A stretch of 64,000 nucleotides of DNA, taken from contig AP018172.1 of assembly GCA_002368175.1 (NCBI GenBank), positions 221,599 to 285,598 of the forward strand. Direction: 5' to 3'. Source of the stretch: Calothrix sp. NIES-2098. Lineage in GTDB: Bacteria > Cyanobacteriota > Cyanobacteriia > Cyanobacteriales > Nostocaceae. The notes below the pieces were generated by a model, which was given only the letters and a program-made list of their open reading frames with translations, was not told the origin of the DNA and ran no database searches. A program made the position numbers and the translations under genes. Positions 35,478 to 64,000 of the stretch are shown here, piece after piece. Position 1 is the first letter of the stretch. Every line of letters begins with the position of its first letter.

Positions 35478-36020
35478 ATGCCCCAGCAAACAGAAGTATT
35501 AGTTCAGCAGGGAGTAATCAAGGCTTCTAGGAACAATTTACTTAGTTCTATTGATGAAGCCATAGAGCATTTTGAAGATTATGAAACGCAGATAATCCTC
35601 AAAAAATATGGTTTTGATGTAAACTCTCTGCTTGACGATTTGAATGATTCTAAGGATTGGATATCTCAACTAATCAACGATCAGCAAAGCTGTCATGCTG
35701 CTGTAGCAGAATACATACATAGCAACAGGAGTTTGGGTTGGATGTCAGAAGATTGTGAAGCAATCATTCAGCAATGTCGAGAAGAAATTATTGCCTCAAT
35801 AGAATTCGGCGGTGAATATAATTCTAAACTAGAAAATTTTGCTTTTGAATTAAAATCTCATCTATCTAAATATCCGGAAAAGCACAAACAAGTTATTCAG
35901 GAATTAAAAAATGATAAACAAAAAGAGATAAATGCAGAAAATGAGTATTCAGACAAAGTACTTTTGTATGAAAAATATGATGTTATACTCCGAAGAATAG
36001 ATGATATTCCTGAAAAATAG
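35478..36020 (+). CDS. Hypothetical acidic cytoplasmic protein (AT-rich island)
   Basis: 180 aa with no recognisable motif. Lies at the edge of a low-GC region. Confidence 0.4.
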   Translation: MPQQTEVLVQQGVIKASRNNLLSSIDEAIEHFEDYETQIILKKYGFDVNSLLDDLNDSKDWISQLINDQQSCHAAVAEYIHSNRSLGWMSEDCEAIIQQCREEIIASIEFGGEYNSKLENFAFELKSHLSKYPEKHKQVIQELKNDKQKEINAENEYSDKVLLYEKYDVILRRIDDIPEK

Positions 36021-36181: not shown

Positions 36182-36763
36182 CTATTGAGAAATTAAGGGT
36201 TTCCGATTTCTATCACGCATACGTTTTGCTAGTTGAGGGTTAGGTCTGGTAAATTGTTCACCTGTAAAAATTTCAATGCTTGCCAGGATTTCTTTTAATT
36301 TTTTTGTTGACAATTCAATTTTTTCTATTTCTTTACTAAGATTGTTAATTTCTTCACTTAGTAATTGATATGTCGTACTCTGGGAATTCAAATTTACTAG
36401 TTCATGTTCTATTTGTTTTTTTCTATGTCTACTTTGTTCTAATTGGTTTTCTAATCTGTGAATATCTCTACTAAACCTGAGAATTTTTCTAGGCAGATTT
36501 CTATTAATAATATCTTGTTTTATACGTTTTTCTTCTTCCAAAATATCCTGTGACTTTTTATGTAATTGCTCTGTTTCCCTGTCTGTAATCTGTGTTAACC
36601 CTTGAAGTAATTCTGGTTTTGGATTTTTTGTGATTTCATTTGTGTGTTTATTCAAGGTTTGTTGATCTAAATAAAAAACTTTATGTTTTGTCACAAGCAA
36701 AGCAGCAAAAATACCACTAACAAAGGCTATTACTATAAATAATACTTGACTAATAATTATCAT
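36182..36763 (-). CDS. Hypothetical membrane-anchored coiled-coil protein
   Basis: N-terminal TM helix (IIISQVLFIVIAFVSGIFAALLV), then a charged heptad-rich region (EEEKRIKQDIINRNLP...LENQLEQSRHRKKQIEHELVNL). Very AT-rich coding sequence. Confidence 0.5.
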   Translation of the reverse strand: MIIISQVLFIVIAFVSGIFAALLVTKHKVFYLDQQTLNKHTNEITKNPKPELLQGLTQITDRETEQLHKKSQDILEEEKRIKQDIINRNLPRKILRFSRDIHRLENQLEQSRHRKKQIEHELVNLNSQSTTYQLLSEEINNLSKEIEKIELSTKKLKEILASIEIFTGEQFTRPNPQLAKRMRDRNRKPLISQ

Positions 36764-36943: not shown

Positions 36944-37816
36944 TTAAGAGTTTTCTAACAAATGTATTCGCTCTTCAATCTCTTGCATTTGTTCGCTATC
37001 ATAGTTACTATGAAGTTCTCGTAATATATTTTTCATTTGTTCTAATTGTATCTTCAAATTTGGATTTGCATTTAAGCTATGATTGTTTAAACTATAAAAA
37101 ATATATTTAATTGCTCCTAATTCTTCCTCTAAACACTCTAGAATTGCACTTCCTTGATAATCATATTGTAAATTTTGCAGAATCCGAATTGCTCTAAGAC
37201 GTTCTTGCAAAGCAATTGGCTGATTAAACGTCTGGTATTCTTTAAAATAAAAAGGTTGTTGAACTTGCTGTTGTATATCTATCTGTTCTGCAGATAGAAC
37301 AGAAACTTGATATTCTAGCCATTTAAGCTTTACCTCAATTCTATATAGTTTTTCCTCTGTTGCAGTCCACAAATTTTCCTGTAAGTTATTCTGAATTTTA
37401 ACTAATTCTTCTTTTTCTAGCCAATCTTGTAATTTTCTTGTAATAGCCTCTTTATCTTGTTCACGAGATAAAACACTTGTGAACCATTGATATCCAAAAA
37501 AAGTTAGTGAGATAGTTACTACCGTACCTACAAGTGATAAAAAAATCGTATCCAAAAGGCTCTTGTTGTACTCTTTCATCAACTCTAAAGCATCTTGGGT
37601 ATCCTCTTTAGGAGAATTTGAACTTTGAGGGAGTGGGGTATTAATTTTACTGTTAGTCGATGGGATAGCGATCGCAGTTAAAGGTTCTTGAGCATAAAGC
37701 GGTTTATTAAGACTTTGCGTACCTAAAAAATATCCGATGGATAAAGATAAACAAATTAAGAAAATTAATATAAGATTATGTTTGTGAAAAAATAATCGAT
37801 AATTATGTTTTTGCAT
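36944..37816 (-). CDS. Hypothetical membrane coiled-coil protein (2 TM)
   Basis: TM1 LILIFLICLSLSIGYFL and TM2 IFLSLVGTVVTISLTFFGY, then a long coiled-coil/Gln-rich C-terminal region. Very AT-rich. Confidence 0.5.
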   Translation of the reverse strand: MQKHNYRLFFHKHNLILIFLICLSLSIGYFLGTQSLNKPLYAQEPLTAIAIPSTNSKINTPLPQSSNSPKEDTQDALELMKEYNKSLLDTIFLSLVGTVVTISLTFFGYQWFTSVLSREQDKEAITRKLQDWLEKEELVKIQNNLQENLWTATEEKLYRIEVKLKWLEYQVSVLSAEQIDIQQQVQQPFYFKEYQTFNQPIALQERLRAIRILQNLQYDYQGSAILECLEEELGAIKYIFYSLNNHSLNANPNLKIQLEQMKNILRELHSNYDSEQMQEIEERIHLLENS

Positions 37817-40493: not shown

Positions 40494-42404
40494 CTAACGA
40501 GTATATTTAAGACTTTCCATCTTCCCTAAAAACTTATCTGTGAAGATACTTATAACAGTGCGTTTGCGAACGTTAATATTAGCACTTAAAGACATTCCAG
40601 ATTGTAGTGGTACTTCTGCACCATTAATATTCATTGATTGCTTTGTTAGCCGAATTTCTGCTGGGAAACGATAGTATTGATGGGTTTGATCGGGTGGTAA
40701 AGCATCAGAACCGACACGAATTAATTCTCCTTTAATATCGCTAAATTCAGTGTAAGGAAAAGAATCAAGTCTGACATCAACAGGCATTCCCGCTTTGACA
40801 AAGCCAATATCATTATTGGTGATGAAAACTTGTGCAACTAAATTTTCTGGAGGCACAATTTTGAGAATAGATTCGCTGCTGTTATAAACGTATCCCGGAC
40901 TACGAGGCTTTAAATCAAAAACAATACCATCATTTGCAGCTCGCAGTTCTTGGTATTTCATATTTAACTGGAGTTCGCTGATTTGACTGTTAATTTCTTG
41001 GATTTTTTTATTGTTTTCGACAATAACTTTGGTAAGTTGACTATCTATTTCAGTGATGCGCTTTTCGTTATCGGCGATTTTGCTAAGTAATTCTTCTTTA
41101 GAAAGGGCGATCGCATTTTGTAATTTCTTTTGTCCTTGGGCGATCGCTAATCTTAAACGTTCTTCTTCTTGCACCAAGCGGTTTACCTCAGCTTGGCTAG
41201 CATCTGCTGCTTGTCTTCGTTCTAGATAAGGTAAGCGCGCAAATGCTCCCTTTTGCACGAGAGTTTCTAAGTTATTGGCAATCTCTAAATTTGTCTTCAG
41301 ACTACTTCTAGCGTTAATCAGTTGGACTTGCACCTGATTTAGCTGCCGAGTTAACTGTTCTCTATCCAACCTGACTGACTCAATGCGAGACTCTCTTTCT
41401 AATTGCCTAGTTAGTAAGCGTTGGCGAAATCTTGGATTTAAGTCGCGTATTCCCTGCCCTTCGTTTAATTCTGCCTGAAACAGTTGATTTTCCTGCACCA
41501 ATGCTGCACGATTTTCTGTTAGCGCTGCTAATTCGGGTAAATTCTGTAACTGCTTGGGACTAGAATTAGCTGTGAGCGATCGCATCTGCGTTTTGTAAAA
41601 CTCATTTTCTGCCATTAAGCTGGCGCGAACTGCTTGCAAAGAAGCTAATTTCGCCTGACTGGTGGTGCGATCGAAGCTAACTAACAAATCGCCTTTTTTG
41701 ACTCTTTGCCCTTCCTGCACGTGAATTTGGGCAATTACCCCGCCAACTGGTGCTTGAACTTCTTTCACAAAACCTTTCGGTTCGAGTTTACCTTGCACGG
41801 CAACAGATTCGTCAATCTTGGCATTACAAGCCCAGATGACTGCAAAAGTTGTGACTCCAACTATGCTCCAGACAATAGCATGAGACCAAGCACGAGATTG
41901 TTTGAGGATGACAGGCTGATCGAATTCCTCTTTCTCCTCAGGTAAAGTCAGTCCGGAACCACCGAAAACACCTACATCTCCTTGTAGAAGCAGTTGCCAT
42001 TGACGCTGGGCTTGTGGGAACCGCTTCCAGATTAAAAATATTCCTCCAACGGCAAACAAGAATAAAAATCCGCCCGTAGGTAGAAGCATTTCCAGATGAA
42101 AAGGGCGATATTCAACAGCATCAACATAATTTTTCTGATAATCGCTCTTTTGTTGTAAAAACGGTTGATTTTGGGATTGGGCTTGCGCCACCGTTGAGTC
42201 GATTTTACGCTCGCTTCGCGAATCTTCACGAGCGATAGGTGATGAAAGTGCTAACTCCATGCTTTCTGGTTGACTAACACAAGCACTTGGATCGGATGTT
42301 ACTGGAGTTTTATCATCAGCACGAATTTCTTGGCAAGAATTAGCAGGTGTTTGAGAGATTTTGGAACATTGTGTGCAAGCTAGCAGCAAAGATAAATCTG
42401 GCAT
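40494..42404 (-). CDS. HlyD-family membrane fusion protein of a type I secretion system, with a long N-terminal extension
   Basis: TM anchor (FLFLFAVGGIFLIW), long coiled coils, and the C-terminal beta-barrel/lipoyl region (VQGKLEPKGFVKEVQAPVGGVIAQIHVQEGQRVKKGDLLVSFD ... VRLDSFPYTEFSDIKGELIRVGSDA). N-terminal 120 aa are Ser/Gln-rich. The true start is uncertain. Confidence 0.8.
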   Translation of the reverse strand: MPDLSLLLACTQCSKISQTPANSCQEIRADDKTPVTSDPSACVSQPESMELALSSPIAREDSRSERKIDSTVAQAQSQNQPFLQQKSDYQKNYVDAVEYRPFHLEMLLPTGGFLFLFAVGGIFLIWKRFPQAQRQWQLLLQGDVGVFGGSGLTLPEEKEEFDQPVILKQSRAWSHAIVWSIVGVTTFAVIWACNAKIDESVAVQGKLEPKGFVKEVQAPVGGVIAQIHVQEGQRVKKGDLLVSFDRTTSQAKLASLQAVRASLMAENEFYKTQMRSLTANSSPKQLQNLPELAALTENRAALVQENQLFQAELNEGQGIRDLNPRFRQRLLTRQLERESRIESVRLDREQLTRQLNQVQVQLINARSSLKTNLEIANNLETLVQKGAFARLPYLERRQAADASQAEVNRLVQEEERLRLAIAQGQKKLQNAIALSKEELLSKIADNEKRITEIDSQLTKVIVENNKKIQEINSQISELQLNMKYQELRAANDGIVFDLKPRSPGYVYNSSESILKIVPPENLVAQVFITNNDIGFVKAGMPVDVRLDSFPYTEFSDIKGELIRVGSDALPPDQTHQYYRFPAEIRLTKQSMNINGAEVPLQSGMSLSANINVRKRTVISIFTDKFLGKMESLKYTR

Positions 42405-42506
42405 AGTTCTACTGGGTCGTTGTCCTTTGTCAGTTGTCAGTTGTCAGCCATTTATTTGTCCTTTGTCCTTCGTCAGTTGTCCTCCGCGTCTCTGCGTCTC
42501 AGTTAT

Positions 42507-45428
42507 TCATAACTGTGATTCCTGTTGTTGAAACAGACAGTAATAGCGTCCTTTCATTGCCATGAGTTCGGCGTGGGTTCCTTGCTCGGCAATTACACCC
42601 CGATCCATAATGATGATGGTGTCGGCATTTCTAACAGTGTTGAGTCGGTGGGTAATAAATAAAACAGTACGACCTTGAAAAAACTCCATCAGATTGCGAC
42701 AGACTTGTTGTTCTAATTCGTAATCTAAAGCACTAGTAGCTTCATCAAGAATCAGTAATCTAGGATTTTGCAAAACGGTACGAGCGATCGCAATGCGTTG
42801 GCGTTGTCCTCCAGAAAGGGCAGAACCTCGTTCCCCAACAATGGTGTTGTAGCCGTTGGGTAAGGCCATGATGAAATCGTGCGCTGCTGCAACTTTGGCG
42901 GCGGCGATGATTTCCTCGGTAGTGGCATCCGGACGAATTAAAGCAATATTATCTTGAATTGTCCCTTCAAATAAAAGGGTATCTTGTAACACTATCCCAA
43001 TTTGGCGGCGTAAGGAGTTTAACTCTACTTTCCTTATATCATAACCATCTATTTGGATGTGTCCGGCTACAGGTTCGTACAGACGCGGTAATAATTTTGT
43101 CAAAGTGCTTTTACCAGAGCCGCTTTGACCGACAATACCAACAAAAGTTCCTGGGGCAATTTCTAAATTGATATTGATCAGTTTTAAACTATCTTCTGGG
43201 TTAAATCCAAAGGAAACTCCATTGTATTTAATTGCACCTGCAATTTCTGGTAGTGCAATATTGTTGCGATCGCTTGGCTGAACTTCTGGTGCTGTATCTA
43301 AAATGTCACTAAGGCGTTCGATAGACAATGCTACTTCTTGGAAATTCTGTGATAGTTGAATTAACCGCAGCAAGGGACTAGTAACATAACCAGCAATGAT
43401 CCGAAAGGCAATCAATTGTCCTAAAGTGAGTTGATTGGAGATGACTAAATGCGCGCCTACCCACAACAACACAAAACTCGAAAATTGATTTAAAAATCCA
43501 CTGATAGAATTAGCAGTACTGGAAGTTAGGACATTTTTAAAGCCAGCACTGATGTAACGAGTATAGCGATCGCGCCATTGCCAACGAGATTTTAATTCAA
43601 TATTCTGTGCCTTGACTGTTTGAATGCCAGTGAGAATCTCCACTAAATAGGATTGAGTATCGGCGTGGCGTTCGGCTTTTGTGCGTAACTGTCTCTGCAC
43701 AATCGGCACCACAAAGGTTGTCAAGATGGCAAACAATGGCACAGTAGCTAAGGCAACGAGGGTGAGCATCCAGCTGTAAAACAGCATAATGCCGATATAA
43801 ATCACAGAGAACACAGCATCTAGTACCACTGTCAATGCTGTTCCTGTGAGAAAAGAACGAATATTTTCTAGTTCGTTAATTCGTCCTGCTAATTCTCCGA
43901 CGCGACGACGTTCAAAATAACTCAGAGGTAATTTGAGTAAATGCTCAATAACTTCTGAACCCAAACGGATATCAATACGGTTGGTAGTGTCGGCAAATAG
44001 ATAAATCCGCAGGCTCGTTAAAGCCGCCTCAAACACTCCAATTACCAACAAGAAAATGCCCAAAATATCGAGGGTATCCAGACTTTTCTGAATTAATACA
44101 GTGTCGATGATGATTTGGGTAACGATCGGATTTGCCAAACCAAATATCTGCACAAAAAAGGAAGCCACCAGGACTTCAACCAACACCAGACGATATTTAT
44201 AGATGGAAGGTAGGAACCAACGCAGACTAAATTTTTCGGGGCGATCGCCTTCTGCCTTTTCCACCGTCAATACTTGTCCAGACTCTCCCCAAATTTGGGC
44301 AAATTCCGCAGGAGAATATTGGCATACTCCTGTTTCAGGAGCCGCAACAACCAATTCCCGTTCGGTAATTTTGTATAGCAAAGCAAGATTGTCTCGCCAA
44401 TAAATCAAGGCTGGCGCAGTCAACCGATTAATTACATGAGCCGGAACTGTAACTAACTGGGCTTGCAAACCCATCATTTCGATAACTGCACCAGCCACTG
44501 GTAAGGAAATCTGCTTGTGCGTTTTTAGTTGATTGGTTAAGACTTTGCGAATTAAATCGCGGCGGAAAGAACCCCCCAATATCTGATTCAACATCTGGAA
44601 ACAGGCTAAAGGAGCATCAATAACTCCGTTTCCCGATACAAATATCGTTTGTGCTGGTGCTAGATTTTCGACAATGGGGTCTGGGGGATATTCTGGAGCC
44701 GGAGTAATAGTTAAACTAGCACCATATTCATTAGGAGACTGCCAGGGAATACCAATTAATCGGACTGCGGCTGTATTTTCCCAAATCTCTTGAGAGCCAT
44801 CCAACGCTAATCTATAGCCAACAGTCATACCCTCTATACTGCCAGCACTAACTAGCCACAAATGCCGTTTGTTAAACTGCTGGGAATTAACTGGCCCCGG
44901 AACTAAATTTACTACCTGCGTTTGTTGCCAAACTTCACGTGCTAAATCTTTAATATCGGTGGTTGCATCTGCATGACGCTGAATTTCCAGACTTAAGAGT
45001 TCAAAAACTTCGCTAATGTGGGGACGCGATCGCACTGCTTCGGCAAACTCTGGTTCTGTATCCATCAATTGTAGAAATTCTGCGGCTTCTAGAGTTATCG
45101 CGATCGCATCTGTGGAGGCCATAACAGCCTCGCAACTGAATCCCCGCAACAATCCCAACCAACCAAGAAACTCTCCTTCTTCTACTACAGCCAAACTAAT
45201 TTGTGAGTTTGTCCATTGGTCGTAACCTAATACCCGCGCCTGTCCTTGATAAATCACCATGACTTGTGCTGGCATTCTTTCTTTAACCAACATCCATTGT
45301 CCGGTGCGATATTGCAATAGTTGGCAGTTAAAGGCGATGTTTTTTAAGGTATTAAATGGCAGTGTATTAAACGGGGGAGTGTCAATAAGGAAGGCTAAAA
45401 TTTCGGTCTGGGTGATAGCTGGCTTCAT
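42507..45428 (-). CDS. T1SS ABC exporter with an N-terminal cyclic-nucleotide-binding domain and a degenerate C39-like peptidase domain
   Basis: The cNMP-binding-like region is FNCQLLQYRTGQWMLVKERMPAQVMVIYQGQARVL...EEGEFLGWLGLL. The C39-like region DAPLACFQMLNQILG has Ala where the catalytic Cys is expected. Six TM helices follow. NBD has Walker A GQSGSGKST, signature LSGGQRQRIAIAR and Walker B LLILDEATSALD. Confidence 0.85.
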   Translation of the reverse strand: MKPAITQTEILAFLIDTPPFNTLPFNTLKNIAFNCQLLQYRTGQWMLVKERMPAQVMVIYQGQARVLGYDQWTNSQISLAVVEEGEFLGWLGLLRGFSCEAVMASTDAIAITLEAAEFLQLMDTEPEFAEAVRSRPHISEVFELLSLEIQRHADATTDIKDLAREVWQQTQVVNLVPGPVNSQQFNKRHLWLVSAGSIEGMTVGYRLALDGSQEIWENTAAVRLIGIPWQSPNEYGASLTITPAPEYPPDPIVENLAPAQTIFVSGNGVIDAPLACFQMLNQILGGSFRRDLIRKVLTNQLKTHKQISLPVAGAVIEMMGLQAQLVTVPAHVINRLTAPALIYWRDNLALLYKITERELVVAAPETGVCQYSPAEFAQIWGESGQVLTVEKAEGDRPEKFSLRWFLPSIYKYRLVLVEVLVASFFVQIFGLANPIVTQIIIDTVLIQKSLDTLDILGIFLLVIGVFEAALTSLRIYLFADTTNRIDIRLGSEVIEHLLKLPLSYFERRRVGELAGRINELENIRSFLTGTALTVVLDAVFSVIYIGIMLFYSWMLTLVALATVPLFAILTTFVVPIVQRQLRTKAERHADTQSYLVEILTGIQTVKAQNIELKSRWQWRDRYTRYISAGFKNVLTSSTANSISGFLNQFSSFVLLWVGAHLVISNQLTLGQLIAFRIIAGYVTSPLLRLIQLSQNFQEVALSIERLSDILDTAPEVQPSDRNNIALPEIAGAIKYNGVSFGFNPEDSLKLININLEIAPGTFVGIVGQSGSGKSTLTKLLPRLYEPVAGHIQIDGYDIRKVELNSLRRQIGIVLQDTLLFEGTIQDNIALIRPDATTEEIIAAAKVAAAHDFIMALPNGYNTIVGERGSALSGGQRQRIAIARTVLQNPRLLILDEATSALDYELEQQVCRNLMEFFQGRTVLFITHRLNTVRNADTIIIMDRGVIAEQGTHAELMAMKGRYYCLFQQQESQL

Positions 45429-46177
45429 GCCAAGAGATACTCCACACAATGGTTAGCAGATGGTAAATGAGTTTGAATTTGTGTTTGTATCCAAGCTTCA
45501 AAAAGTTCGTCTAGCAAGTACTGCTGCATATTTTCATCTAACTGAGCAGGTAGTAATTGCTCTAAGCGAATAATTACATACCAATCGGCTATTAAATGCG
45601 GTTTCCAGATTTGACCTGGTTGACTGACATATAGAATTTGCTGAATTATCGGATGTGGTTGAGATAGAGGAACAGGCCCAATTACCCCACCTGTCTGTGC
45701 TTCGCCACCTTGGGAATATTGCTGCGCTATGGTTGCAAAAGGATGTTCTCCCTCTACAATCCGAAAATATAGCTCTTGGGCTAACCCTTCATCTTGGGTA
45801 CGAATCATGGAATATATTACCCGGTCTAAATCTGCTTTGCGGTGCAGAAAGTAAGACTCTAGTTTATTGCCCCAGATTGCAAGCTGAAATTTTCGGATTA
45901 ATAGAGGACGGATGGCTATTTCCTGCATAGTTTCTTGAGTTAGCTGATTCTTTTGCAACCATGCTTGTTCTAACTCTGGTGAAGTCAGTTGGTGACGTTC
46001 GCGAAACTTGGCGATCGCTGTTTGATGTTCTGCTTCCGTGCATGAAAAAGATGCGATCGCCTCTTCGATCGCTTTAGCACGTAATACCTGTGGTAACAAC
46101 TGATAACGATTTAGCAAAGACAGTAATTTTTCTGCCTGAAGAATTTCGTTACCCACTTGTAATGTTTGTGTCGTCAT
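45425..46177 (-). CDS. Cytoplasmic parvulin-like (PpiC-type) peptidyl-prolyl isomerase domain protein, co-transcribed with the T1SS ABC
   Basis: RVIYSMIRTQDEGLAQELYFRIVEGEHPFATIAQQYSQGGEAQTGGVIGPVPLSQ...GQIWKPHLIADWYVIIRLEQ has the rotamase motif. No signal peptide. Its stop overlaps the ABC start (ATGA). Confidence 0.65.
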   Translation of the reverse strand: MTTQTLQVGNEILQAEKLLSLLNRYQLLPQVLRAKAIEEAIASFSCTEAEHQTAIAKFRERHQLTSPELEQAWLQKNQLTQETMQEIAIRPLLIRKFQLAIWGNKLESYFLHRKADLDRVIYSMIRTQDEGLAQELYFRIVEGEHPFATIAQQYSQGGEAQTGGVIGPVPLSQPHPIIQQILYVSQPGQIWKPHLIADWYVIIRLEQLLPAQLDENMQQYLLDELFEAWIQTQIQTHLPSANHCVEYLLA

Positions 46178-46961
46178 AATTCCTGACTAGCACGTTTGGC
46201 ATTCTAAGATTTGGGCAGAAATCTGTACATCTCACGCCGTGAGAGTGTTGAAAGAGACTAGGGAATAAAAAGCCTATCTCTATTTTCTGTTCAGGCATTT
46301 TCTAGCGTATCCGGATTTTTTTCAATAAGCCTTTGTAAAATTTTTTCGCCTCAATTTTTGCCAACTTCGCGAAAACTTTACATTATATCCGGTTTTTAGA
46401 GTAATTTGTTACTAGTTAATATTGATAATACTGATTTTTGTATAAAATTTTAGTATTATTTTACACTTTAAAAAATTAAATCATTAGTTCTGTTTTGCAT
46501 ATAAATAGAGACTTTTATTAGTATAAAGAGGCAATATATACAGAAAATTAGAATTTATAATTTTGGTATAAATTGTATTTTGGCTGCTATGTGACGGTTT
46601 ATCGACCGCCACAAGGCAAGGGTGAAAAAAGCTACTGAATCTTTTATCCTGAGGGGAAGCGATTGATGTATTACTACTTACATCGTTTTCCTTTTAATCT
46701 ACGGGGTCGTCATTCAACTGCCAGAAGCTCAGGCAGATAAAAACCCCTAAATCTGGAAGTCGCATCATCAGGAGAAATATTTCTCTCATACGTAACTTTG
46801 ATGTATCGAACATAAGACTTCACAGTACTTATAAGCTTGTGACAGCTTTACTCTAACTACTCTTTATTTACCCCTCTCCAGGTTTGCTTCTACCAATAAG
46901 TTGCAGCAGAATTTTTCTTGCTGCTGAGTTCATGTGAAGAAATCTTTAAGAGGACGGATCG

Positions 46962-48395
46962 ATGGCAACAACTACTACCCCGACATTTGAACAACAGGTT
47001 CTAGATTTAACCAATCAACAACGAATTAAGAATGGTCTTCAACCACTGCAAGCAAATGCAGAACTCAATTATGCTGCTGACAGCTATGCAGAATTTATGG
47101 CGCAGAACAACTATTTTAGCCATACAGGAAAAGATGGTTCTACTCCCAGAACTAGAGTTAATGCCGTGGGCTTTGATGCTCAAATAGTTGGAGAGAACAT
47201 CGCTTTTGGTCAACAAACACCAAAAGATGTTGTGGATGCTTGGATGAAAAGCCCAGGACATAGAGCTAATATCCTCAATGCCAAATATACTCAAATTGGT
47301 ATAGGTTTTGATAACAAGAATCCGAATAATAGACCGTATTGGGTTCAAGACTTTGGCAGCAATGATACCAACCCAGCGACTAAGATTCCCACTTCAGGTT
47401 CGCAACCAACCCCAACACCAACCCCAACCCCAACCCCAACACCAACCCCAACCCCAACCCCAACCCCAACACCAACCCCAACGCCTACTGGCACATTTGA
47501 ACAGCAAGTTCTGCAACTCACTAATCAAAAACGCGCCGAGAAGGGACTTGCGCCACTCAAAGCTAATGCAGAACTCAATTATGCTGCTGACCGATATGCA
47601 GAATTTATGGCGCAGAACAGCTATTTTAGTCATACAGGGAAAGATGGTTCTACTCCCAGAACTAGAGCTAACGCCGTGGGCTTTGATGCTCAAATAATTG
47701 GAGAGAACATCGCTTTTGGTCAAAAAACACCAAAAGATGTTGTGGATGCTTGGATGAATAGTCCAGGACATAGAGCTAATATCCTCAATGCCAAATTTAC
47801 TCAAATTGGTATAGGTTTTGATAACAAGAATCCGAATAATAGACCATATTGGGTTCAAGACTTTGGCAGCAATGATACCGACCCCACGACCAAGATACCA
47901 ACCGGTGTAAAGGGTTCAGTTTCTGAACTTCCACCTTCAACTACTCCTATCCCTGGTAAAGAACTCAAAGGTAGGAATGGCAATGATATCCTCACTGGCG
48001 GCGCAGGTGATGACACATTGTGGGGTGGTAGAGGTAAAGATACCCTGAATGGAGGCGATGGTAACGATCGCTTGATTGGTGGGTTAGGCAAAGATAAGTT
48101 AACTGGTGGTGGTAACAGCGATACCTTCGTTTATGAAAAACTCCAAGATAGAGGAGATACCATCACTGATTTTGCCGTTAATCAAGATAAAATCGACCTG
48201 CAAAAGATTTTGGCAGGCCCTTCTTACACTGGCACAAATAAATTCGCTGATTACCTAAAGTTTGAACAACTTGGTAGCGATACTGTTGTTCGTCTTGATG
48301 TCGACGGAAAAGCAAAAGCTGGTGGCTTTGAGAAGTTTGTGCTGTTGGAAAATGTCAAGGCCTCTAGCCTAACCGCTAACAACTTTGTTGTCTAA
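46962..48395 (+). CDS. Secreted T1SS substrate: two tandem CAP (SCP/PR-1-like) domains, a PT linker, RTX calcium-binding repeats and a C-terminal secretion signal
   Basis: No N-terminal signal peptide. CAP domain 1 (about 46983-47400) and CAP domain 2 (about 47490-47904) are about 90% identical (HTGKDGSTPRTR...SPGHRANILN...YWVQDFG). Linker is (PT)n. Five nonapeptide repeats: LTGGAGDDT LWGGRGKDT LNGGDGNDR LIGGLGKDK LTGGGNSDT. AAGAGGA RBS upstream. Confidence 0.8.
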   Translation: MATTTTPTFEQQVLDLTNQQRIKNGLQPLQANAELNYAADSYAEFMAQNNYFSHTGKDGSTPRTRVNAVGFDAQIVGENIAFGQQTPKDVVDAWMKSPGHRANILNAKYTQIGIGFDNKNPNNRPYWVQDFGSNDTNPATKIPTSGSQPTPTPTPTPTPTPTPTPTPTPTPTPTPTGTFEQQVLQLTNQKRAEKGLAPLKANAELNYAADRYAEFMAQNSYFSHTGKDGSTPRTRANAVGFDAQIIGENIAFGQKTPKDVVDAWMNSPGHRANILNAKFTQIGIGFDNKNPNNRPYWVQDFGSNDTDPTTKIPTGVKGSVSELPPSTTPIPGKELKGRNGNDILTGGAGDDTLWGGRGKDTLNGGDGNDRLIGGLGKDKLTGGGNSDTFVYEKLQDRGDTITDFAVNQDKIDLQKILAGPSYTGTNKFADYLKFEQLGSDTVVRLDVDGKAKAGGFEKFVLLENVKASSLTANNFVV

Positions 48396-48458: not shown

Positions 48459-50036
48459 TTATTGAGCAGTACTGGCAATCTGATTCCAAGCTTGCACAAC
48501 TTGCTGTAAGTTTTTCGGCAATTTATTTTGCGAAATATCGTTATATCTCACCGTACCCTCTTTGCTAGTCAGAGTGTAGGTAATATAATCAGCCGAGCCT
48601 TGTGGTGCTGGGTAACTCAAATTTTTGAATTCACCAAATCGCGATCGCTCTACTAACCTCTCAAATTGTTGCACTTGTTGGCGGGAAATCCGGCGAACAC
48701 TCCGTTCCGAATCATTAGCATCGCCAACTCGCACCCGAATCAAAGTGCCATCATTAAGTAAAACAGTTTCATAGGTTCTGCCAATAAAGCCACCACTAGA
48801 AATCTGCCGAAATACCACATTTCTATCTAAAGGTAATGGCATTTCATTTGCGGGAATGGGTACTGCACCAGTGGTATTTCTATCAGAAACTTGGTTACTA
48901 CGCAGTCGGTTCCAAGCTTTGACTACAGTTCGCAAATTGCTTGGTAGTTGAGCTTGAGAAATATTGTTGTACTTAACTGTACCTTCTGGGCTGGTGAGAG
49001 TGTAGGTAATGTAATCAGCTGCTCCCCTAGGTGCTGGGTAATTTAAATTCTTAAATTGTGCAAATCTGGTGCTGGCTAACAATTGTTGAAATTGTTGGAC
49101 TTGTTGGGGAGAAACTTGCCAAACTCTTCTTTCCGAATCGTTAGCATCGCCAACTTTAACTCGAATCAAGCTGCCATCATTGAGTAGAACAGTTTCATAA
49201 GTAGTCCCAGCCAAGCCACCACTAGATATTTGCCGAAACACCACATTTCGATCTAAAGATGGCGGTAATTCATTACTAGGAATTGGAACTGGTCTAAGAT
49301 TGCTAGGGTTACGATTAGGTCTGTCACTATTAGCAAGCTGGATTTGAGAACCACTTTCATCACTGAGAAAAACCCAAGGACTAATCCTATTAGTCGCTCT
49401 CACAAATACTTCCCAACCCTGTACTAATATTTGGTCGCAAGCATTGGGTAAAGTGGAACTTTCGCAACCTCTGGCGAATTTTTTCTGTTTAAATGCAACG
49501 ATATTTAGGGTGCTAATTGGTAATCCTGAAACTTGGGAAGCTTGACGTAAAACTCCATCCCTAACGTTTTGAGGCAATGTCTGACTATTAGTTTGGTTAG
49601 CTCTTTCATTTAATCTGATTGCGGAACCTGTTTGATCGGTGTGATAAACCAAGGTTTGTCCAACTGCACCCACAACTATTCGCCAACCTGGTACTATTGC
49701 TCTCAGACAACTTTCATTAGCATTACCTAATTCTAAACAGCCATCTGCCCAATTTTGTTGTTGAGCTTGAATAATATTTAGCCGAGAAATTGGCTGCTGC
49801 AAACGTGTAGACGCAGCTTGTAAAACCCGATTTCTCAAAGATTGTGGTAATTGGTTTTGTTTAAAATTTTGTTTCAGAACTTCGTTTGTTGTCTCTGGCG
49901 AAGGCCTAAGAGAAGCAGCACTACTGCTTTTGATTAATGTTAACCCACTACCAACAGATAAAATGCCAGTTAAAACTAAGGCAGTGAAAATCCGTCCTTG
50001 ATTGCTGGTAGAATAATTACCCAAAGAGCCTTTCAT
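48459..50036 (-). CDS. Secreted hypothetical protein built from two pairs of tandem repeat domains
   Basis: Signal peptide MKGSLGNYSTSNQGRIFTALVLTGILSVGSGLTLIKSSSAAS. Repeat A occurs twice, about 100 aa each (..LPQ.(L/V)R..VL..AS.....PIS.LNI......(W/F)A.GC......C...V.GW...V.A......). Repeat B occurs twice, about 115 aa each (DRNVVFRQISSGG..G.TYETVLLNDG.LIRV.VGDANDSER.V...S.QQVQQF..L......F.EFKNL.YPAP.G.ADYITYTLTS.EGTV.YN.ISQ..LP.NL..VV.AWN). Confidence 0.6.
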   Translation of the reverse strand: MKGSLGNYSTSNQGRIFTALVLTGILSVGSGLTLIKSSSAASLRPSPETTNEVLKQNFKQNQLPQSLRNRVLQAASTRLQQPISRLNIIQAQQQNWADGCLELGNANESCLRAIVPGWRIVVGAVGQTLVYHTDQTGSAIRLNERANQTNSQTLPQNVRDGVLRQASQVSGLPISTLNIVAFKQKKFARGCESSTLPNACDQILVQGWEVFVRATNRISPWVFLSDESGSQIQLANSDRPNRNPSNLRPVPIPSNELPPSLDRNVVFRQISSGGLAGTTYETVLLNDGSLIRVKVGDANDSERRVWQVSPQQVQQFQQLLASTRFAQFKNLNYPAPRGAADYITYTLTSPEGTVKYNNISQAQLPSNLRTVVKAWNRLRSNQVSDRNTTGAVPIPANEMPLPLDRNVVFRQISSGGFIGRTYETVLLNDGTLIRVRVGDANDSERSVRRISRQQVQQFERLVERSRFGEFKNLSYPAPQGSADYITYTLTSKEGTVRYNDISQNKLPKNLQQVVQAWNQIASTAQ

Positions 50037-50429: not shown

Positions 50430-50927
50430 TCAAGCACTGAGAGCCTGCTGTTCAATCGACTGATTTGGCAAATCAAATCTAATAGTACTAGCTGCCCAAT
50501 CTTTTAGATCGGGTGCTAGCCAAACTAGCTTGCGAAGAATTTCATCATTTACCCACAATACTAAAGGGCAATGGAACTGTTTGCGGAACTCATCGCGCAT
50601 CAAATTGGTACTAATGATGAGTTCGTTGATATCGATTACAGATTCTAAACCTCTGATCATCAAAACATCAGGTTGGTCAACACCAACTGTAGTTGAGATG
50701 GTTGTATACAGGGTTTCAGTCCCAGGGGGTAGCACAATCTCTTGGATATGCACTGATGAGAATTCTGTTAGCAGATTCAGTACCTGCTGTTGCCTATTAG
50801 CAGAGTTACAAGATGCCAAAATTAATGAAAATGCACCAGCAGAGACCATCATCGCTCTTGCGAGTCGTTTGGTGGCTGCAACGGTATTCCCCATACCGTC
50901 TTGTGAATTGTTTAAGCTGCTGATCAT
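50430..50927 (-). CDS. Hypothetical protein
   Basis: 165-aa ORF with plausible codon usage. The opposite-strand ORF at 50530..50964 looks unnatural (Cys/Ser-rich). No motif recognised. Confidence 0.35.
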   Translation of the reverse strand: MISSLNNSQDGMGNTVAATKRLARAMMVSAGAFSLILASCNSANRQQQVLNLLTEFSSVHIQEIVLPPGTETLYTTISTTVGVDQPDVLMIRGLESVIDINELIISTNLMRDEFRKQFHCPLVLWVNDEILRKLVWLAPDLKDWAASTIRFDLPNQSIEQQALSA

Positions 50928-51552
50928 TATAGAGTCCTGCCTTTGGTCTTTAAAAGTACCTTAGCCTTTTCAGTTTAATTCGTTCATCAACTCGTTATCC
51001 AAAGTATTTTTGGGTAAAATTTGATAACACTTTATTTGATGACCTACAGTAATCTTACGCATGATTTAATAATTGAGGATGCAGTGTTTGACCCCGCATT
51101 TCCGAGAATATAGATAGTAGGCAGTGTAATCCAAATAACAAACAAGTGAAATTTACAAATTTGTTGAGTTGCGTGTACCTAATATTTAGGTTTAGAAGAT
51201 TAGCTGCTGATTATTAAGTGATGGGAAGTTTGGGAATAAGGAAAGGCTATATTCCTAAATTAACATTATCAACGTAAATTAATAACAAAAATCGGTATAA
51301 ATGTTTAGCCAGCAGGCGATAATGCAACTTCTGTCTGGCTATATCAGTCAAGATTCATATTTAACGATGCTTGTAACAAATGATGAAAAAGCTAGTCGGT
51401 CTTTCGGGTCAGCGAGGGGTCACACCCTTTGCTAATTTGCTAACAGCATCACTGATGGAGATGATTAATTTTGAGTTTTGAATTCGGAGCGAAGTGACGT
51501 GACTTTTTTGAGATGGAATTTTTACCAGAGCAGAAAGCGGGCATTCTTTGCA

Positions 51553-52725
51553 ATGATGGTTGCCTTGAGCTTGATAGCTACTGTGATGTTTTCATTACCT
51601 TTAAACGCACAAAATCCACCTTTGCGATCGCCTGTATCGGAATTAAGAGGTGTATGGTTAACAAATATTGATAGCGATATGCTATTTGAGCAGAATCGTC
51701 TTAAACAATCTTTACAACGATTGAGCGAACTTAACTTTAATACTGTATATCCCACAGTTTGGAATTGGGGCTATACTCTGTATCCTAGCAAAGTTGCAGC
51801 CAAAGAAATTGGGCGATCGCTCGACCCCACACCCGGACTGCAAGGACGAGATATGCTCAAAGAAGTTGTCGACGAAGGGCATAAAAAAGGTTTAACAGTT
51901 ATTCCTTGGTTTGAATTTGGCTTTATGGCTCCTGCTGATTCCCAATTAGCTAAACGTCATCCCCAATGGCTAACTAATCGTAGTAACGGTACGCGAATTG
52001 TCAAAGAAGGTACACATGACCGAGTGTGGCTGAGTCCCTTTCGCCCAGATGTCCAAAAATTTATCCAAGATTTAATAGTTGAAATTGTTAAAAACTATAA
52101 TATCGACGGTATTCAATTTGATGACCATTTTGGTTTACCCTCAGAATTAGGCTACGATCCTTACACAGTAGCGCTCTATAGAAAAGAACATGGCGGTCGT
52201 GCACCTTCTGCTAACTTTAAAGATCCAGAGTGGGTGGCTTGGAGAGCAAATAAAATTACTGACTACATGAAGCGGGTATTTACAGCTATCAAAGCTGTGA
52301 AAAAAGACTGTATTGTATCCGTTGCACCTAATCCTCAACGTTTTTCCTACGATTTCTTTTTAGCAGATTGGCAAAAATGGGAACGTATGGGACTGGTAGA
52401 AGACTTAGTTTTGCAGATCTATCGCGATGACCTGAGCGTTTTTCTCAGCGAATTAGAGTACCCAGAAGTGAAAGCCGCAAAGAGCCATATTCCTGTAAGT
52501 ATTGGCATTTTATCCGGGCTAAAAGGCAAATCTATACCCATGCAACAAATTCAAACACAAGTGCAAAAAGTACGCGATCGCAATTTTGCCGGAGTAGCGT
52601 TCTTTTTCTACGAAACTCTATGGAACCTTAGCAAAGAAAAACCCTTAGACCGTCAAACCAGCTTTCAGCAAATCTTCCCCATACGCACCGCGTATCCAAA
52701 TTTATTAACAGGCTGGAAACCTTAG
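51553..52725 (+). CDS. GHL10 (DUF187/YddW-like) glycoside-hydrolase-like family protein, secreted
   Basis: Signal peptide MMVALSLIATVMFSLPLNAQ, then LRGVWLTNIDSDMLFEQNRLKQSLQRLSELNFNTVYPTVWNWGYTLYPS...GIQFDDHFG. It is a paralogue of the catalytic region of the 15839..18025 gene. An alternative TTG start lies at 51478. Confidence 0.7.
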   Translation: MMVALSLIATVMFSLPLNAQNPPLRSPVSELRGVWLTNIDSDMLFEQNRLKQSLQRLSELNFNTVYPTVWNWGYTLYPSKVAAKEIGRSLDPTPGLQGRDMLKEVVDEGHKKGLTVIPWFEFGFMAPADSQLAKRHPQWLTNRSNGTRIVKEGTHDRVWLSPFRPDVQKFIQDLIVEIVKNYNIDGIQFDDHFGLPSELGYDPYTVALYRKEHGGRAPSANFKDPEWVAWRANKITDYMKRVFTAIKAVKKDCIVSVAPNPQRFSYDFFLADWQKWERMGLVEDLVLQIYRDDLSVFLSELEYPEVKAAKSHIPVSIGILSGLKGKSIPMQQIQTQVQKVRDRNFAGVAFFFYETLWNLSKEKPLDRQTSFQQIFPIRTAYPNLLTGWKP

Positions 52726-52960
52726 GGAAGCAGAGGGGCAGGGAGCAGGTGAGACCAGCCCCCGTCTACAGCCCTTCGGGCATCCTTCGGCGAGCGGTCT
52801 CCGTCACGATGGGGGACTGGCGAACTCGTTCGACGAAGTTGTTCCCGTTCCCTCGAAGAGGGTTCCCGCAGGGTAGGGTAGGGGAGCAAATTAACAATGA
52901 TTCCTCCTTGTCTCCTTTCTCCCCACACTTCCCACACTCCCCACACTCCCTTACTCTTAC
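52726..52960. repeat. GC-rich intergenic insert (about 60% GC) carrying a GGGCAGGGAGCAGG motif, then dispersed-repeat copy 4 (CTCCCCACACTTCCCACACTCCCCACACTCCC)
   Basis: Sequence is gggaagcagaggggcagggagcaggtgagacc...cgaactcgttcgacgaagttgttcccgttccc...tctccccacacttcccacactccccacactccc. Related G-rich motifs are at 2990-3060 and, as reverse complement, at 55595-55625. Confidence 0.6.
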
Positions 52961-54462
52961 CCGCCGATTCCCAAACGCCCAGCCAAAGCGGGAGTTAAAG
53001 GTAGGAGAGTAGCGATCGTTAAAAAGAGTGCTAAAAGACCTAAACCAGCCCTAGCATCATCCGGTTCAGTAATTTCATTCAAGCTAGGGCGTTCTAAGTC
53101 CCGTTGTAAAAACAGAATCAAAATTGCCCAGTACATAGCTAAAGGATTAGCTAGGGATACAATACCCAGCAAAATTAAAGTGGCAAAGGTTGCTCTGCCT
53201 GCGGTTTTGCGTCCATAAATCGCTTGCACAATCCGACCACCATCTAATTGTCCGGCTGGCATTAAATTCAAGGCAGTAATTACTAACCCCAGCCAACCAA
53301 TCACTACTAGGGGATGAACATTGACTAAAGGTGACTGTAAGGCGGAACCGAGAACAACTCGCGCCAAGCTACCGACCAAAATCGATCCTTGGAAAAACTG
53401 ATTTGGGATTTGAAATAAACTGCCTGGATGAGAAAGCAACAAACCCACAATCAGCATCAATAAAGAAACTATACCGCCAGCCGCCGGCCCTGCCAAAGCT
53501 ATATCAAATAGTACGGTGCGGTTAGGCAATAATGACTCAAAGCGAGTAATAGCACCAAAAGAACCAATTTGCACAGCAGGTAGGAAGAAAGGCCAGCTCA
53601 GACGAACTTGGTGACGTTTAGCCAGTAACCAATGACCGATTTCATGTGCTACCAAAATCGTCAATATCCCCAAACCGATAGGCAAAGTTTCTGCCAACCT
53701 TTGTGGTTGGGCAAATAAATCAAAACTCAGCAGTAACCCCGCAGCTTCTAAACTCGTAGCAATCGTGGCGATGAGTAGGATACCCGCAAATGCTTTTTGG
53801 GGTAACGACATGGGGCGCGGGTCATTGCGACTCGGTAGGACAATTACTACAGGTTTACCGTCTGTATTCTCTACTAAGAATAAACGATAGCGATCGCTCA
53901 GACGTTCCTGTAAACTTGCACTCAAACGAGTGTGAACTTCCTGCGCTTCTCCCCGCAGATTGCCTTTAAAAATTACGCCTTCTTGGTAGGGTATCGTTTC
54001 TGTAGTAAAAAATGTGTCAATTCCAAAAATACCTTTAATGGCATTCAAATCATCTTCTGGAATCGACATTACCGCAATTTTTTGCTCTGCCACTCCTGTG
54101 GAAGCATTAGCATCTGGTGCGGTATTTAGTTCAGTTGAAGCATTAGCAGCCAGCCTTTGGGTTGCTTTTTGCTTGAGTAGCGCATCTTGTCCAGCGGAGC
54201 GTAGCTGCTTGCCTAAGAATATATATAAGCCAGCGGATGCTACTACTAAAAACAATATACCCACTATGTTGATGTAAATTCCGGCTGCAAACAAACCAAA
54301 GAACAACAGCCAAGGAGCCATCAACACCACCGACTGTAACCAGGCCAAGACTCCCAGTTTACCAAAAGGTCTGGCGCGATAAAAGCCCCAGCCCAAAATG
54401 GCAAAAGCTACCAGCACAATTGTTGCAACGATAGAAGTTTCCGATAGAGTAAACATCTCCAA
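52957..54462 (-). CDS. Site-2 protease (M50) family metalloprotease
   Basis: Multiple TM helices; HEXXH as LVAHEIGHWLLAKRH; a second conserved region LNLMPAGQLDGGRIV. Length 501 aa. Confidence 0.85.
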   Translation of the reverse strand: MEMFTLSETSIVATIVLVAFAILGWGFYRARPFGKLGVLAWLQSVVLMAPWLLFFGLFAAGIYINIVGILFLVVASAGLYIFLGKQLRSAGQDALLKQKATQRLAANASTELNTAPDANASTGVAEQKIAVMSIPEDDLNAIKGIFGIDTFFTTETIPYQEGVIFKGNLRGEAQEVHTRLSASLQERLSDRYRLFLVENTDGKPVVIVLPSRNDPRPMSLPQKAFAGILLIATIATSLEAAGLLLSFDLFAQPQRLAETLPIGLGILTILVAHEIGHWLLAKRHQVRLSWPFFLPAVQIGSFGAITRFESLLPNRTVLFDIALAGPAAGGIVSLLMLIVGLLLSHPGSLFQIPNQFFQGSILVGSLARVVLGSALQSPLVNVHPLVVIGWLGLVITALNLMPAGQLDGGRIVQAIYGRKTAGRATFATLILLGIVSLANPLAMYWAILILFLQRDLERPSLNEITEPDDARAGLGLLALFLTIATLLPLTPALAGRLGIGG

Positions 54463-54851: not shown

Positions 54852-55235
54852 CTAGACTGGTAATCCTGGTAGTCCTCGCAAATTGCGTAAAGCGCTAACG
54901 CAAGCCGGGCAATCGCAACCAAATAATTGGATGGCAGCATTACTTTCTTCATCAGTAAATTCTAGTTTGGCAGGATCGCTGGGTGTGCCTTGATTTGAGG
55001 CAACAACTTGTGTTGAATTAGAAGCAATAGGAGTACTCTTGCTCCGCCGAATACAGACTAAAGGTGTGGGATACGCGCCGTGTGGAGAATGTACGCAAGC
55101 ACGACCATCTGGAGTATAAATTACTTCAGTTGAGCGCAGAGATGCATGAGCAGGCTGTGTCAGCATCACCATAGACAGCATAGATGTAAATACTGTTGGG
55201 GTGGAGAGCAAATGCAACAGAAATTTTTTGTTCAT
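54852..55235 (-). CDS. Small secreted hypothetical protein with a C-terminal CxCPxC motif
   Basis: MNKKFLLHLLSTPTVFTSMLSMVMLTQPAHA is a signal peptide. ...AAIQLFGCDCPACVSALRNLRGLPGLPV. Confidence 0.45.
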   Translation of the reverse strand: MNKKFLLHLLSTPTVFTSMLSMVMLTQPAHASLRSTEVIYTPDGRACVHSPHGAYPTPLVCIRRSKSTPIASNSTQVVASNQGTPSDPAKLEFTDEESNAAIQLFGCDCPACVSALRNLRGLPGLPV

Positions 55236-55705
55236 ATTATCGAGAGCCTTTTTCAATTAAGTAAAACTAAACGAGTAAGTTTGTAGCATCATTTTTGATA
55301 AATCTTTTAGGTTTTTATCCAAGACTTTTTAACACTTGGCAGTTAAACCTAAAAGATTTAAGAAGGATTTTACCAGAAGCAATTTATCAAATATATATCT
55401 GTGGAAGTATTATCTATATGAAATTGGTATGTCATTTGTGTGTCGCTCATGACACATAGTTAAAACAATGAATTCAGGTAGGGTTATTGGGTTTGGGAAA
55501 ACATACAGTTCTCATTAAATAATGACTTTAATAAGTTAAATTTCAAAATCTGAGAAATTATCCCATTTCTCTAAATTCTGAGTCCAGATAATTCTCCGCC
55601 CTGCTCCCTGCCCCCTATGTGTAGCCTTATTTTGGAGAATCGGTATTATCCACCCCTAATCTCTTGCTATTTGGTAGTAAGAGTTGAGGTGGGTTGGATT
55701 TGATA

Positions 55706-63827: not shown

Positions 63828-64000
63828 AGAGCGTTCCCGCTGTTCTTCTATATTGTTTTTCTTATCTTCGAGACTGGGAAAGGTAGGACTTTCGTTTGTT
63901 GAATGCAGATGCACAGTTTAACCAACCAGAGCCAGATAATCAGATTGACCAACTTTCTAACACAAATTCTGAGTTTTCACCAAAAATCAAAAAAGCAGAG

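Follow-up and report, generated by a model that had tools for sequence, protein, structure and literature searches.

The 64,000-nucleotide stretch of the genome of Calothrix sp. NIES-2098 considered here (contig AP018172.1, positions 221,599 to 285,598; hereafter referred to as the window) contains a gene on the minus strand (48459..50036 in the list of open reading frames) that encodes a protein of 525 amino acids. A preliminary description had interpreted its product as a secreted protein with the layout A-A-B-B, an assembly of two different and unrecognised domains that are each duplicated in tandem. This raises the question of where the two modules belong and what a protein composed of them may do outside the cytoplasm. 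There is firm support for the assignment of the protein to a large, unnamed family of cyanobacteria with the plan signal + A(0-8) + B(1-3). Sequence profiles and predicted structures also firmly support the view that A represents a new sequence family with a generic fold of the PepSY/cystatin type, and that B is a module with a predicted Mago fold and a distant relationship to DUF6438 and emfourin. The function proposed for the protein is more tentative.

Architecture of the protein and its family

The open reading frame is a real gene, and chance is excluded. Its ATG start is supported by the N-terminus (MKGSLGNYSTSNQ.RIFTALVLTGILSVGSGLT), which is common to the homologues, and an identical protein of 525 amino acids is encoded on an independent Logan contig. 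The gene comprises, in the order of translation and all on the minus strand, an N-terminal export signal delimited by hydropathy (amino acids 1-42; 49911..50036), the units A1 (amino acids ~60-146; 49599..49859) and A2 (~151-238; 49323..49586), and the units B1 (~246-383, including a proline-rich linker of ~19 amino acids; 48888..49301) and B2 (~388-525; 48462..48875). A scan for promoters and terminators of the gene was uninformative.

The preliminary description had made the A-A-B-B layout dependent on internal repeats that are detectable by self-alignment. A plain self-BLASTP of the protein returned only the trivial diagonal, and the units were compared instead by their Smith-Waterman scores against 500 shuffles. 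The two A units score 124 against 27 ± 5.5 for the shuffled sequences (z = 17.6, with none of the 500 shuffles as high), the two B units score 496 against 30 ± 4.9 (z = 94), and no similarity between A and B is found in any of the four comparisons (z < 2). Identities in global alignments are 36% for A1/A2 and 68% for B1/B2. The internal repeats are thus detectable, and the interpretation that two unrelated types of domain have each undergone tandem duplication is borne out. At the DNA level, the repeat is formed by the B units; it comprises 300 nucleotides (48484..48783 within B2, the reference copy of the repeat search, and 48910..49209 within B1) with 72% identity and a spacing of 426 nucleotides, which equals 142 codons. 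The repeats of about 300 base pairs that had been described are therefore real, but their copies are offset from the positions originally given (about 48640-48900 and about 48960-49260). The A units are too diverged for a visible DNA repeat. Tandem Repeats Finder reported only a 27-nucleotide microrepeat in the gene, as the divergence and length of the units put them beyond the reach of this program.

The N-terminus contains a single hydrophobic stretch (amino acids 16-35; Kyte-Doolittle maximum 1.9), which is preceded by K2 and R15 and followed by SSSAAS, features that fit a Sec signal peptide or a signal anchor. The protein has four cysteines in all, which form one pair in each A unit, as had been noted previously (C100 and C110 in A1, C191 and C200 in A2). 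The hydrophobic N-terminus and the occurrence of cysteines only as pairs within the A units support the proposed secretion, as do the SLH cell-wall-binding domains that some other proteins with A units possess, and the protein would be located in the periplasm or the envelope. A pilin-like reading of the signal (G|LTLIK) was dismissed, as the hydrophobic segment lies before the glycine and not after it. The mature protein is very basic, with a calculated isoelectric point (pI) of ~10 (10.1 for B1 and 9.7 for B2), and contains many Gln, Asn, and Ser residues. The B units of the Leptolyngbya type appear, by eye, to be rich in Asp and Glu and acidic; the high charge is probably not a constant of the family.

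Hidden Markov models (HMMs) built from the A and B units, as had been suggested at the outset, recover a large family whose members share the plan signal-A(n)-B(m). Of 8,000 candidates scored in a search with the whole protein, at least 456 matched at E ≤ 0.001; those with a name are nearly all from Nostocales and nearly all annotated as 'hypothetical protein'. When architectures were assigned with the HMMs, iterated on the 120 best homologues, an N-terminal signal followed by A units and C-terminal B units was found in 119 of them, with a single A-only protein as the exception. The arrangements include AAAAAAAB (34 homologues), AABB (19), AAABB (16), AAAAB (15), AAAAAAB (10), and ABB (7). The layout of the Calothrix protein is the one common to the 19 AABB homologues, and the others differ from it only in the number of units.

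The closest relative is a protein of 618 amino acids (AAABB) from Aulosira sp. ZfuVER01, to which the Calothrix protein aligns with 90% identity (amino acids 1-61 to 1-61 and 62-525 to 155-618). One unit of 93 amino acids, the first A of its closest relatives, is missing from the Calothrix protein, in which the corresponding junction lies at NQLP|QS. In the Aulosira protein, unit 2 corresponds to A1 (89% identity) and unit 3 to A2 (90% identity), and B1 and B2 are 93% and 88% identical to their counterparts. Because the units are positional orthologues, the duplications must be old, and the arrays evolve by the loss and gain of whole units.

Other combinations of the modules exist as well. Exported proteins that consist only of B (174-198 amino acids) occur in Anabaena, Cylindrospermum, and Pseudanabaena, and such B-only relatives have classic short signal peptides (e.g., MKNIIILTTILSLCSLTTIPAIA|NP). 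Also A-only arrays are found, and some A units are fused to SLH cell-wall-binding domains. A divergent subfamily of A1B1 and A2B1 proteins in Leptolyngbya and Nodosilinea has B units that are only ~32% identical; the pairing of A and B is therefore old. This subfamily emerged from the follow-up of a tblastn search against plasmids, which had yielded one Leptolyngbya homologue; it did not provide a bridge to emfourin. The plasmid-encoded member (A1B1, 294 amino acids) is located on the 93.5-kb plasmid of Leptolyngbya sp. BL0902 (NZ_CP046157.1, L089:7524-8408), between genes with GUN4 and NB-ARC domains, and has ~90 relatives in Nodosilinea, Leptolyngbya, and Phormidium.

An exhaustive search with the A profile recovered 5,159 cluster representatives at E ≤ 0.001, a number that falls to 1,587 at the stricter threshold of E ≤ 1e-10. 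Module B is present in 267 of 185,579 species genomes; among the best 80 of these 267, all genomes with a taxon name belong to cyanobacteria, and one is an unclassified metagenome-assembled genome labelled 'uncultured bacterium'. The named members of the family stem from Nostocales, Oscillatoria, Laspinema, Limnospira, Chrysosporum, and one representative of Caldilineaceae. A literature search, in which the locus tags used were guesses, found no paper on the orthologues in Anabaena or Nostoc, one of which is BAB73816.1 of Anabaena PCC 7120, and no mention of DUF6438 was found in the literature searched. Neither the A family nor the A-B architecture seems to have been described before, and B extends a known superfamily.

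Relationships and predicted folds of the modules

The earlier view that both domains are unrecognised holds for A but not for B. In the case of A (~87 amino acids), no consistent Pfam family was found among 63 units at E ≤ 10, the whole protein did not match any relevant NCBIfam family, searches of NCBIfam and PHROGs gave no meaningful match, and the A profile had no match among the sequences in the PDB. Structure prediction, which had been recommended in the preliminary description, yielded confident AlphaFold2 (AF2) models of both modules. That of A is very confident (predicted local distance difference test, pLDDT, 94.6) and comprises a helix (residues 6-20) and four strands (28-37, 56-65, 68-75, and 81-83), which are predicted to form an antiparallel sheet that can be superposed together with the helix on solved PepSY domains. 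Strands 1 and 2 are connected by a long loop that holds the two cysteines, whose predicted disulfide would close a loop of 9-10 residues that is variable in sequence and length.

The structural matches of the A model include the PepSY proteins YpmB (2gu3, score 5.6), YpeB (5boi, 5.4), UipA (7atk, 5.4), and FoxB (7abw, 4.4), and also a fungalysin chain (4k90_B, 5.0), several cystatins (4.3-5.4), and VirB8/NTF2-like proteins. Because the cystatins and NTF2/VirB8-like proteins score equally well, the match is not specific for PepSY. The Pfam family PepSY (PF03413) was not matched at E ≤ 10 by any of the 63 A units or by six full-length homologues that contain A. Two homologues carry the UniRef label 'PepSY domain-containing protein', which points in the same direction as the fold. 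The disulfide-closed loop of 9-10 residues between strands 1 and 2 is a feature of A that distinguishes it from the PepSY domains of YpmB, YpeB, UipA, and FoxB and of the propeptides of M4/M36 peptidases.

In the case of B, which has a core of ~115 amino acids, the whole protein matches the Pfam family Emfourin (PF20242) with 40.2 bits against a cut-off of 27 (E = 4.6e-10), a score that sums two stretches; the individual B units of the window reach only 25.5 and, in the case of B2, 23.2 bits, each under the cut-off. DUF6438 (PF20033), an uncharacterised bacterial domain, is matched by the whole protein with 29.2 bits against a cut-off of 30 and by the units with 16.5-18.1 bits. Among 33 B units from relatives, 29 match Emfourin (best E 2e-6) and 18 match DUF6438, all of them below the cut-off; in a wider set that includes the units of the Leptolyngbya type, DUF6438 matches 21 of 26 and Emfourin 12. 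The aligned regions are similar, with B residues ~58-128 corresponding to Emfourin positions 21-88 of 91 and residues ~55-130 corresponding to DUF6438 positions 41-112 of 116. The latter model belongs to the same length class as the core of B, but every match remains under its 30-bit cut-off. Judged by these profiles, B appears to be a consistent sub-threshold relative of Emfourin and DUF6438 and not a clear member of either. Searches of PDB sequences with the B profile and a widened B profile found nothing, and a word-index profile search with B recovered only cyanobacterial B proteins and did not reach emfourin.

The AF2 model of B, based on 33 units, is confident (pLDDT 92.2; predicted template modelling score, pTM, 0.87) and comprises four strands, a helix, three strands, and two helices. 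In a Foldseek comparison with the PDB, only chains of Mago nashi matched at E < 0.001 (template modelling score, TM, 0.41-0.50), indicating that the predicted structure of B has a Mago fold. The likeness is restricted to the level of the fold. Mago nashi is a nuclear protein of the eukaryotic exon-junction complex, whereas B is a putatively exported bacterial module; the corresponding Pfam family (PF02792) is not matched, and identities in the structural alignments amount to 9-14%.

The positions that are invariant or nearly so in a broad alignment of B are F22, G28, L39, D42, G43, F71, L75, Y88, A95, D96, Y111, D113, L119, P120, and W130. Two Asp motifs, GDANDSER (residues 51-58) and YPAPxGAADY (88-97), are near-invariant in the B units of Nostocales, and the A-D-Y of GAADY is still near-invariant in the wider set. 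Both motifs fall into the two internal blocks of the model with the lowest confidence (residues 51-60 and 91-100, with pLDDT values of 88 and 84).

Possible functions and genomic context

The genomic context was surveyed by clustering the open reading frames of 80 related loci. In the window, the region upstream contains an open reading frame for a protein of 165 amino acids (50430..50927, minus strand, separated by a gap of 393 nucleotides), a GHL10 glycosidase-like gene (51478..52725), and an M50 peptidase. No other gene accompanies the family as faithfully as the 165-amino-acid gene, which immediately precedes the family gene on the same strand in 50 of the 80 loci (median gap 458 nucleotides). 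Its product shows strong conservation (mean column identity of 75%), with the motifs FSLILACCN, GLESV, and PLVLWVNDEIL.KLVWLAPD, and has no match in Pfam or the PDB and no signal peptide. A lipoprotein signal (LASC) was rejected because the conserved FSLILACCN core is not preceded by a hydrophobic segment resembling a signal peptide. The GHL10 gene (DigH/YddW-like) is found nearby in 51 and the M50 gene in 40 of the 80 loci; in the window, the GHL10 gene and the EGY3-like M50 membrane protease, which are syntenic with the family, occupy 51478..54462. There are two gene orders, M50> GHL10< p165> AB> and p165> AB> GHL10> M50<, which differ by an inversion of the pair of 165-amino-acid gene (p165) and family gene (AB), a pair that stays together. 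These neighbours are missing in a second paralogue of Nostoc and in Calothrix PCC 6303, Coleofasciculus, Pseudanabaena, and Leptolyngbya. Other recurrent neighbours (arginase-like, acylphosphatase, GGACT, FeoB, CoaBC, and a PAS/GAF cyclase) look like housekeeping genes by eye and were not treated as partners.

PepSY, cystatin, and emfourin are folds used in peptidase inhibition, and the Mago fold is a platform for protein-protein interactions. Because emfourin, PepSY domains, and cystatins are peptidase-inhibitory, it is tentatively proposed, with somewhat less than even confidence, that the protein is a stoichiometric binder and probably an inhibitor of extracytoplasmic hydrolases, with proteases as the first candidates. 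A Sec signal or membrane anchor at the N-terminus would place the two A and two B modules in the periplasm or envelope. The strongly conserved B modules would then represent the active heads, and the more variable A modules might serve as additional PepSY-like units with inhibitory or regulatory roles or as a spacer from the membrane. Both the inhibitory activity and its target are inferred.

The closest analogue is emfourin (M4in) of Serratia proteamaculans, a tight-binding protein inhibitor of protealysin and thermolysin that is encoded in the protealysin operon; protealysin is an intracellular protease, and emfourin has been presented as its small partner (PMC9505478). The likeness to emfourin involves ~67 C-terminal residues of B, and both proteins are small alpha+beta domains. 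The two differ in that B has ~35 additional N-terminal residues, which form three strands in the model, and a long C-terminal helix, and in that B is putatively exported, tandemly duplicated, and fused to A modules. According to Bozin et al. (J Biol Chem 2023), emfourin reportedly inhibits by means of two flexible loops, one of which provides a zinc-binding Asp. The two conserved Asp motifs in the less confident blocks of the B model would be reminiscent of such a mechanism.

Several observations weigh against the proposed inhibitory role. The match to Emfourin is under the per-domain cut-off for every B unit (12-26 bits singly) and covers only the C-terminal two thirds of the module. No emfourin chain was among the top fold matches in the PDB or among the results of PDB searches with the B profile, although the presence of the nuclear magnetic resonance structure of emfourin in these libraries is unconfirmed. 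Among orthologues, the disulfide loop of A varies only slightly more than the remaining parts of the unit do (entropy values of 1.65 vs. 1.28 in one comparison and of 1.14 vs. 0.95 in the other), and this marginally raised variability does not constitute a clear signature of an arms race. Moreover, the operon of emfourin contains an M4 protease (PMC9505478), whereas none adjoins the Calothrix gene: there was no M4 peptidase among the 20 larger open reading frames of the window that were scanned, in five other contexts, or among the recurrent neighbours in the 80 loci, and the syntenic M50 membrane protease is the only protease encoded in the vicinity, both in the window and in the related loci surveyed.

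Alternatively, the protein might have a structural or scaffolding role in the envelope of filamentous cyanobacteria, in which a membrane-anchored A stalk of variable length presents the C-terminal B head to peptidoglycan, a polysaccharide, or a protein without inhibiting any enzyme. Although somewhat less likely than an inhibitor, this explanation is consistent with a constant C-terminal position of B combined with 0 to 8 copies of A, which resembles the layout of surface proteins composed of a stalk and a head, with the fusion of some A arrays to SLH domains, and with the nearly exclusive origin of the named sequences from filamentous organisms (Nostocales, Oscillatoria, Laspinema, Limnospira, Leptolyngbya, Pseudanabaena, and one member of Caldilineaceae). 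The very basic nature of the mature protein, the absence of a protease partner from the neighbourhood in the 80 loci, and the role of Mago folds in protein interactions point in the same direction. By contrast, the B-only proteins of ~175 amino acids with plain signal peptides resemble small, soluble periplasmic binders or inhibitors, the basic pI is apparently not conserved (judged only by eye from the Asp/Glu-rich B of Leptolyngbya), and nothing points to a ligand. A partner closer at hand would be the neighbouring GHL10 glycosidase if the anchored PepSY-like array stabilised a hydrolase of peptidoglycan glycans, held it inactive, or positioned it. YpeB acts in this manner for SleB in the spores of Bacillus. 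The proximity of GHL10 within a few kb in the majority of the loci, in two arrangements, and in the window itself, together with N-terminal export or anchor sequences on both proteins, would agree with such a partnership, but the simple two-gene inversion that relates the arrangements means that the linkage may be an inherited gene order of Nostocales. Since the linkage is missing in the lineages listed above, GHL10 is encoded on the opposite strand in the more common arrangement, and B would be left without a role, a YpeB-like function is unlikely.

The score of the whole protein above the Emfourin cut-off and the precomputed PF20242 annotations of many homologues might even be taken to indicate a bona fide immunity or inhibitor protein of the emfourin type, whose target would be an M4 protease that resembles protealysin and is encoded at another site of the genome. 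This is quite improbable, as the single units fall below the cut-off, the more divergent B units prefer DUF6438, no emfourin family of NCBIfam is matched, and a putatively exported multi-domain protein without an M4 gene nearby contrasts with the small partner of an intracellular protease (PMC9505478). An origin of the repeats by chance or composition, or an open reading frame that is not a gene, has only a vanishing probability; beyond the diagonal of the self-BLASTP there is nothing in its favour, and the z-scores of both modules, the hundreds of homologues, the species genomes that encode B, and the confident AF2 models of both units speak against it.

The proposal of a hydrolase binder or inhibitor can be extended to the entire family. 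The A(n)B(m) proteins would then constitute new multi-headed periplasmic hydrolase inhibitors of mostly filamentous cyanobacteria, which combine a new disulfide-containing PepSY-like module with an exported branch of emfourin/DUF6438 that shares the fold of Mago nashi, and the 165-amino-acid gene would belong to the same unit; that all of these elements apply is unlikely. Established multi-headed protease inhibitors, such as plant multicystatin and ovomucoid, have no sequence relationship to the A-A-B-B protein, and the loops of A are not hypervariable.

All named members of the family encountered here are annotated as 'hypothetical', except for a handful with automatic labels at odds with their domains. 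If A were established as a domain family and B were assigned a place beside DUF6438 and emfourin, thousands of envelope proteins of cyanobacteria could be annotated. If the idea of an inhibitor is correct, the family would offer a first handle on the control of extracytoplasmic proteases or cell-wall hydrolases in cyanobacteria and a source of new inhibitor scaffolds. In structural terms, the likeness of B to Mago is a minor curiosity; if the fold is shared by the superfamily, a eukaryotic fold of RNA processing would gain a bacterial inhibitor as a relative. No major picture is changed by these results, in which function is deduced indirectly, but they are useful for annotation and provide a reasonable lead for biochemistry.

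Other genes of the window and a second locus type

Further upstream, an open reading frame of 134 amino acids (54852..55256, minus strand) encodes an N-terminal hydrophobic segment and several cysteines and has no Pfam match. Four other open reading frames of the window are without a Pfam match at E ≤ 1e-4, namely 61791..63914 (minus strand, 707 amino acids), 36944..37816 (minus strand, 290 amino acids), 36182..36763 (minus strand, 193 amino acids), and 35478..36020 (plus strand, 180 amino acids).

A type I secretion cluster (40494..48395) is located downstream and converges on the A-A-B-B gene. It comprises genes for HlyD (40494..42404, minus strand), an ABC exporter of 980 amino acids with cNMP-binding and C39-like domains (42507..45449, minus strand), a PPIase-like protein (45425..46177, minus strand), and a CAP-CAP-RTX protein of 477 amino acids with a (TP)n linker between its two CAP domains (46962..48395, plus strand). 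The last gene is indeed convergent with the A-A-B-B gene, as stated in the preliminary description, with 63 nucleotides between the stop codons. The (TP)n region gives rise to spurious overlapping open reading frames at 47308..47858. The entire block is common only to the approximately ten closest relatives (L009-L018).

A second type of locus, with the architecture A(1-2)B1, occurs in Nostoc spp. and related Nostocales (L024, L029, L031, L035, L036, L038-L040, L042, L046, L048, L053, L058, and L073). It has no neighbour of 165 amino acids and is usually flanked by acylphosphatase-like and arginase-like genes upstream and by genes for a PAS/GAF cyclase and a deoxyhypusine-synthase-like protein downstream.

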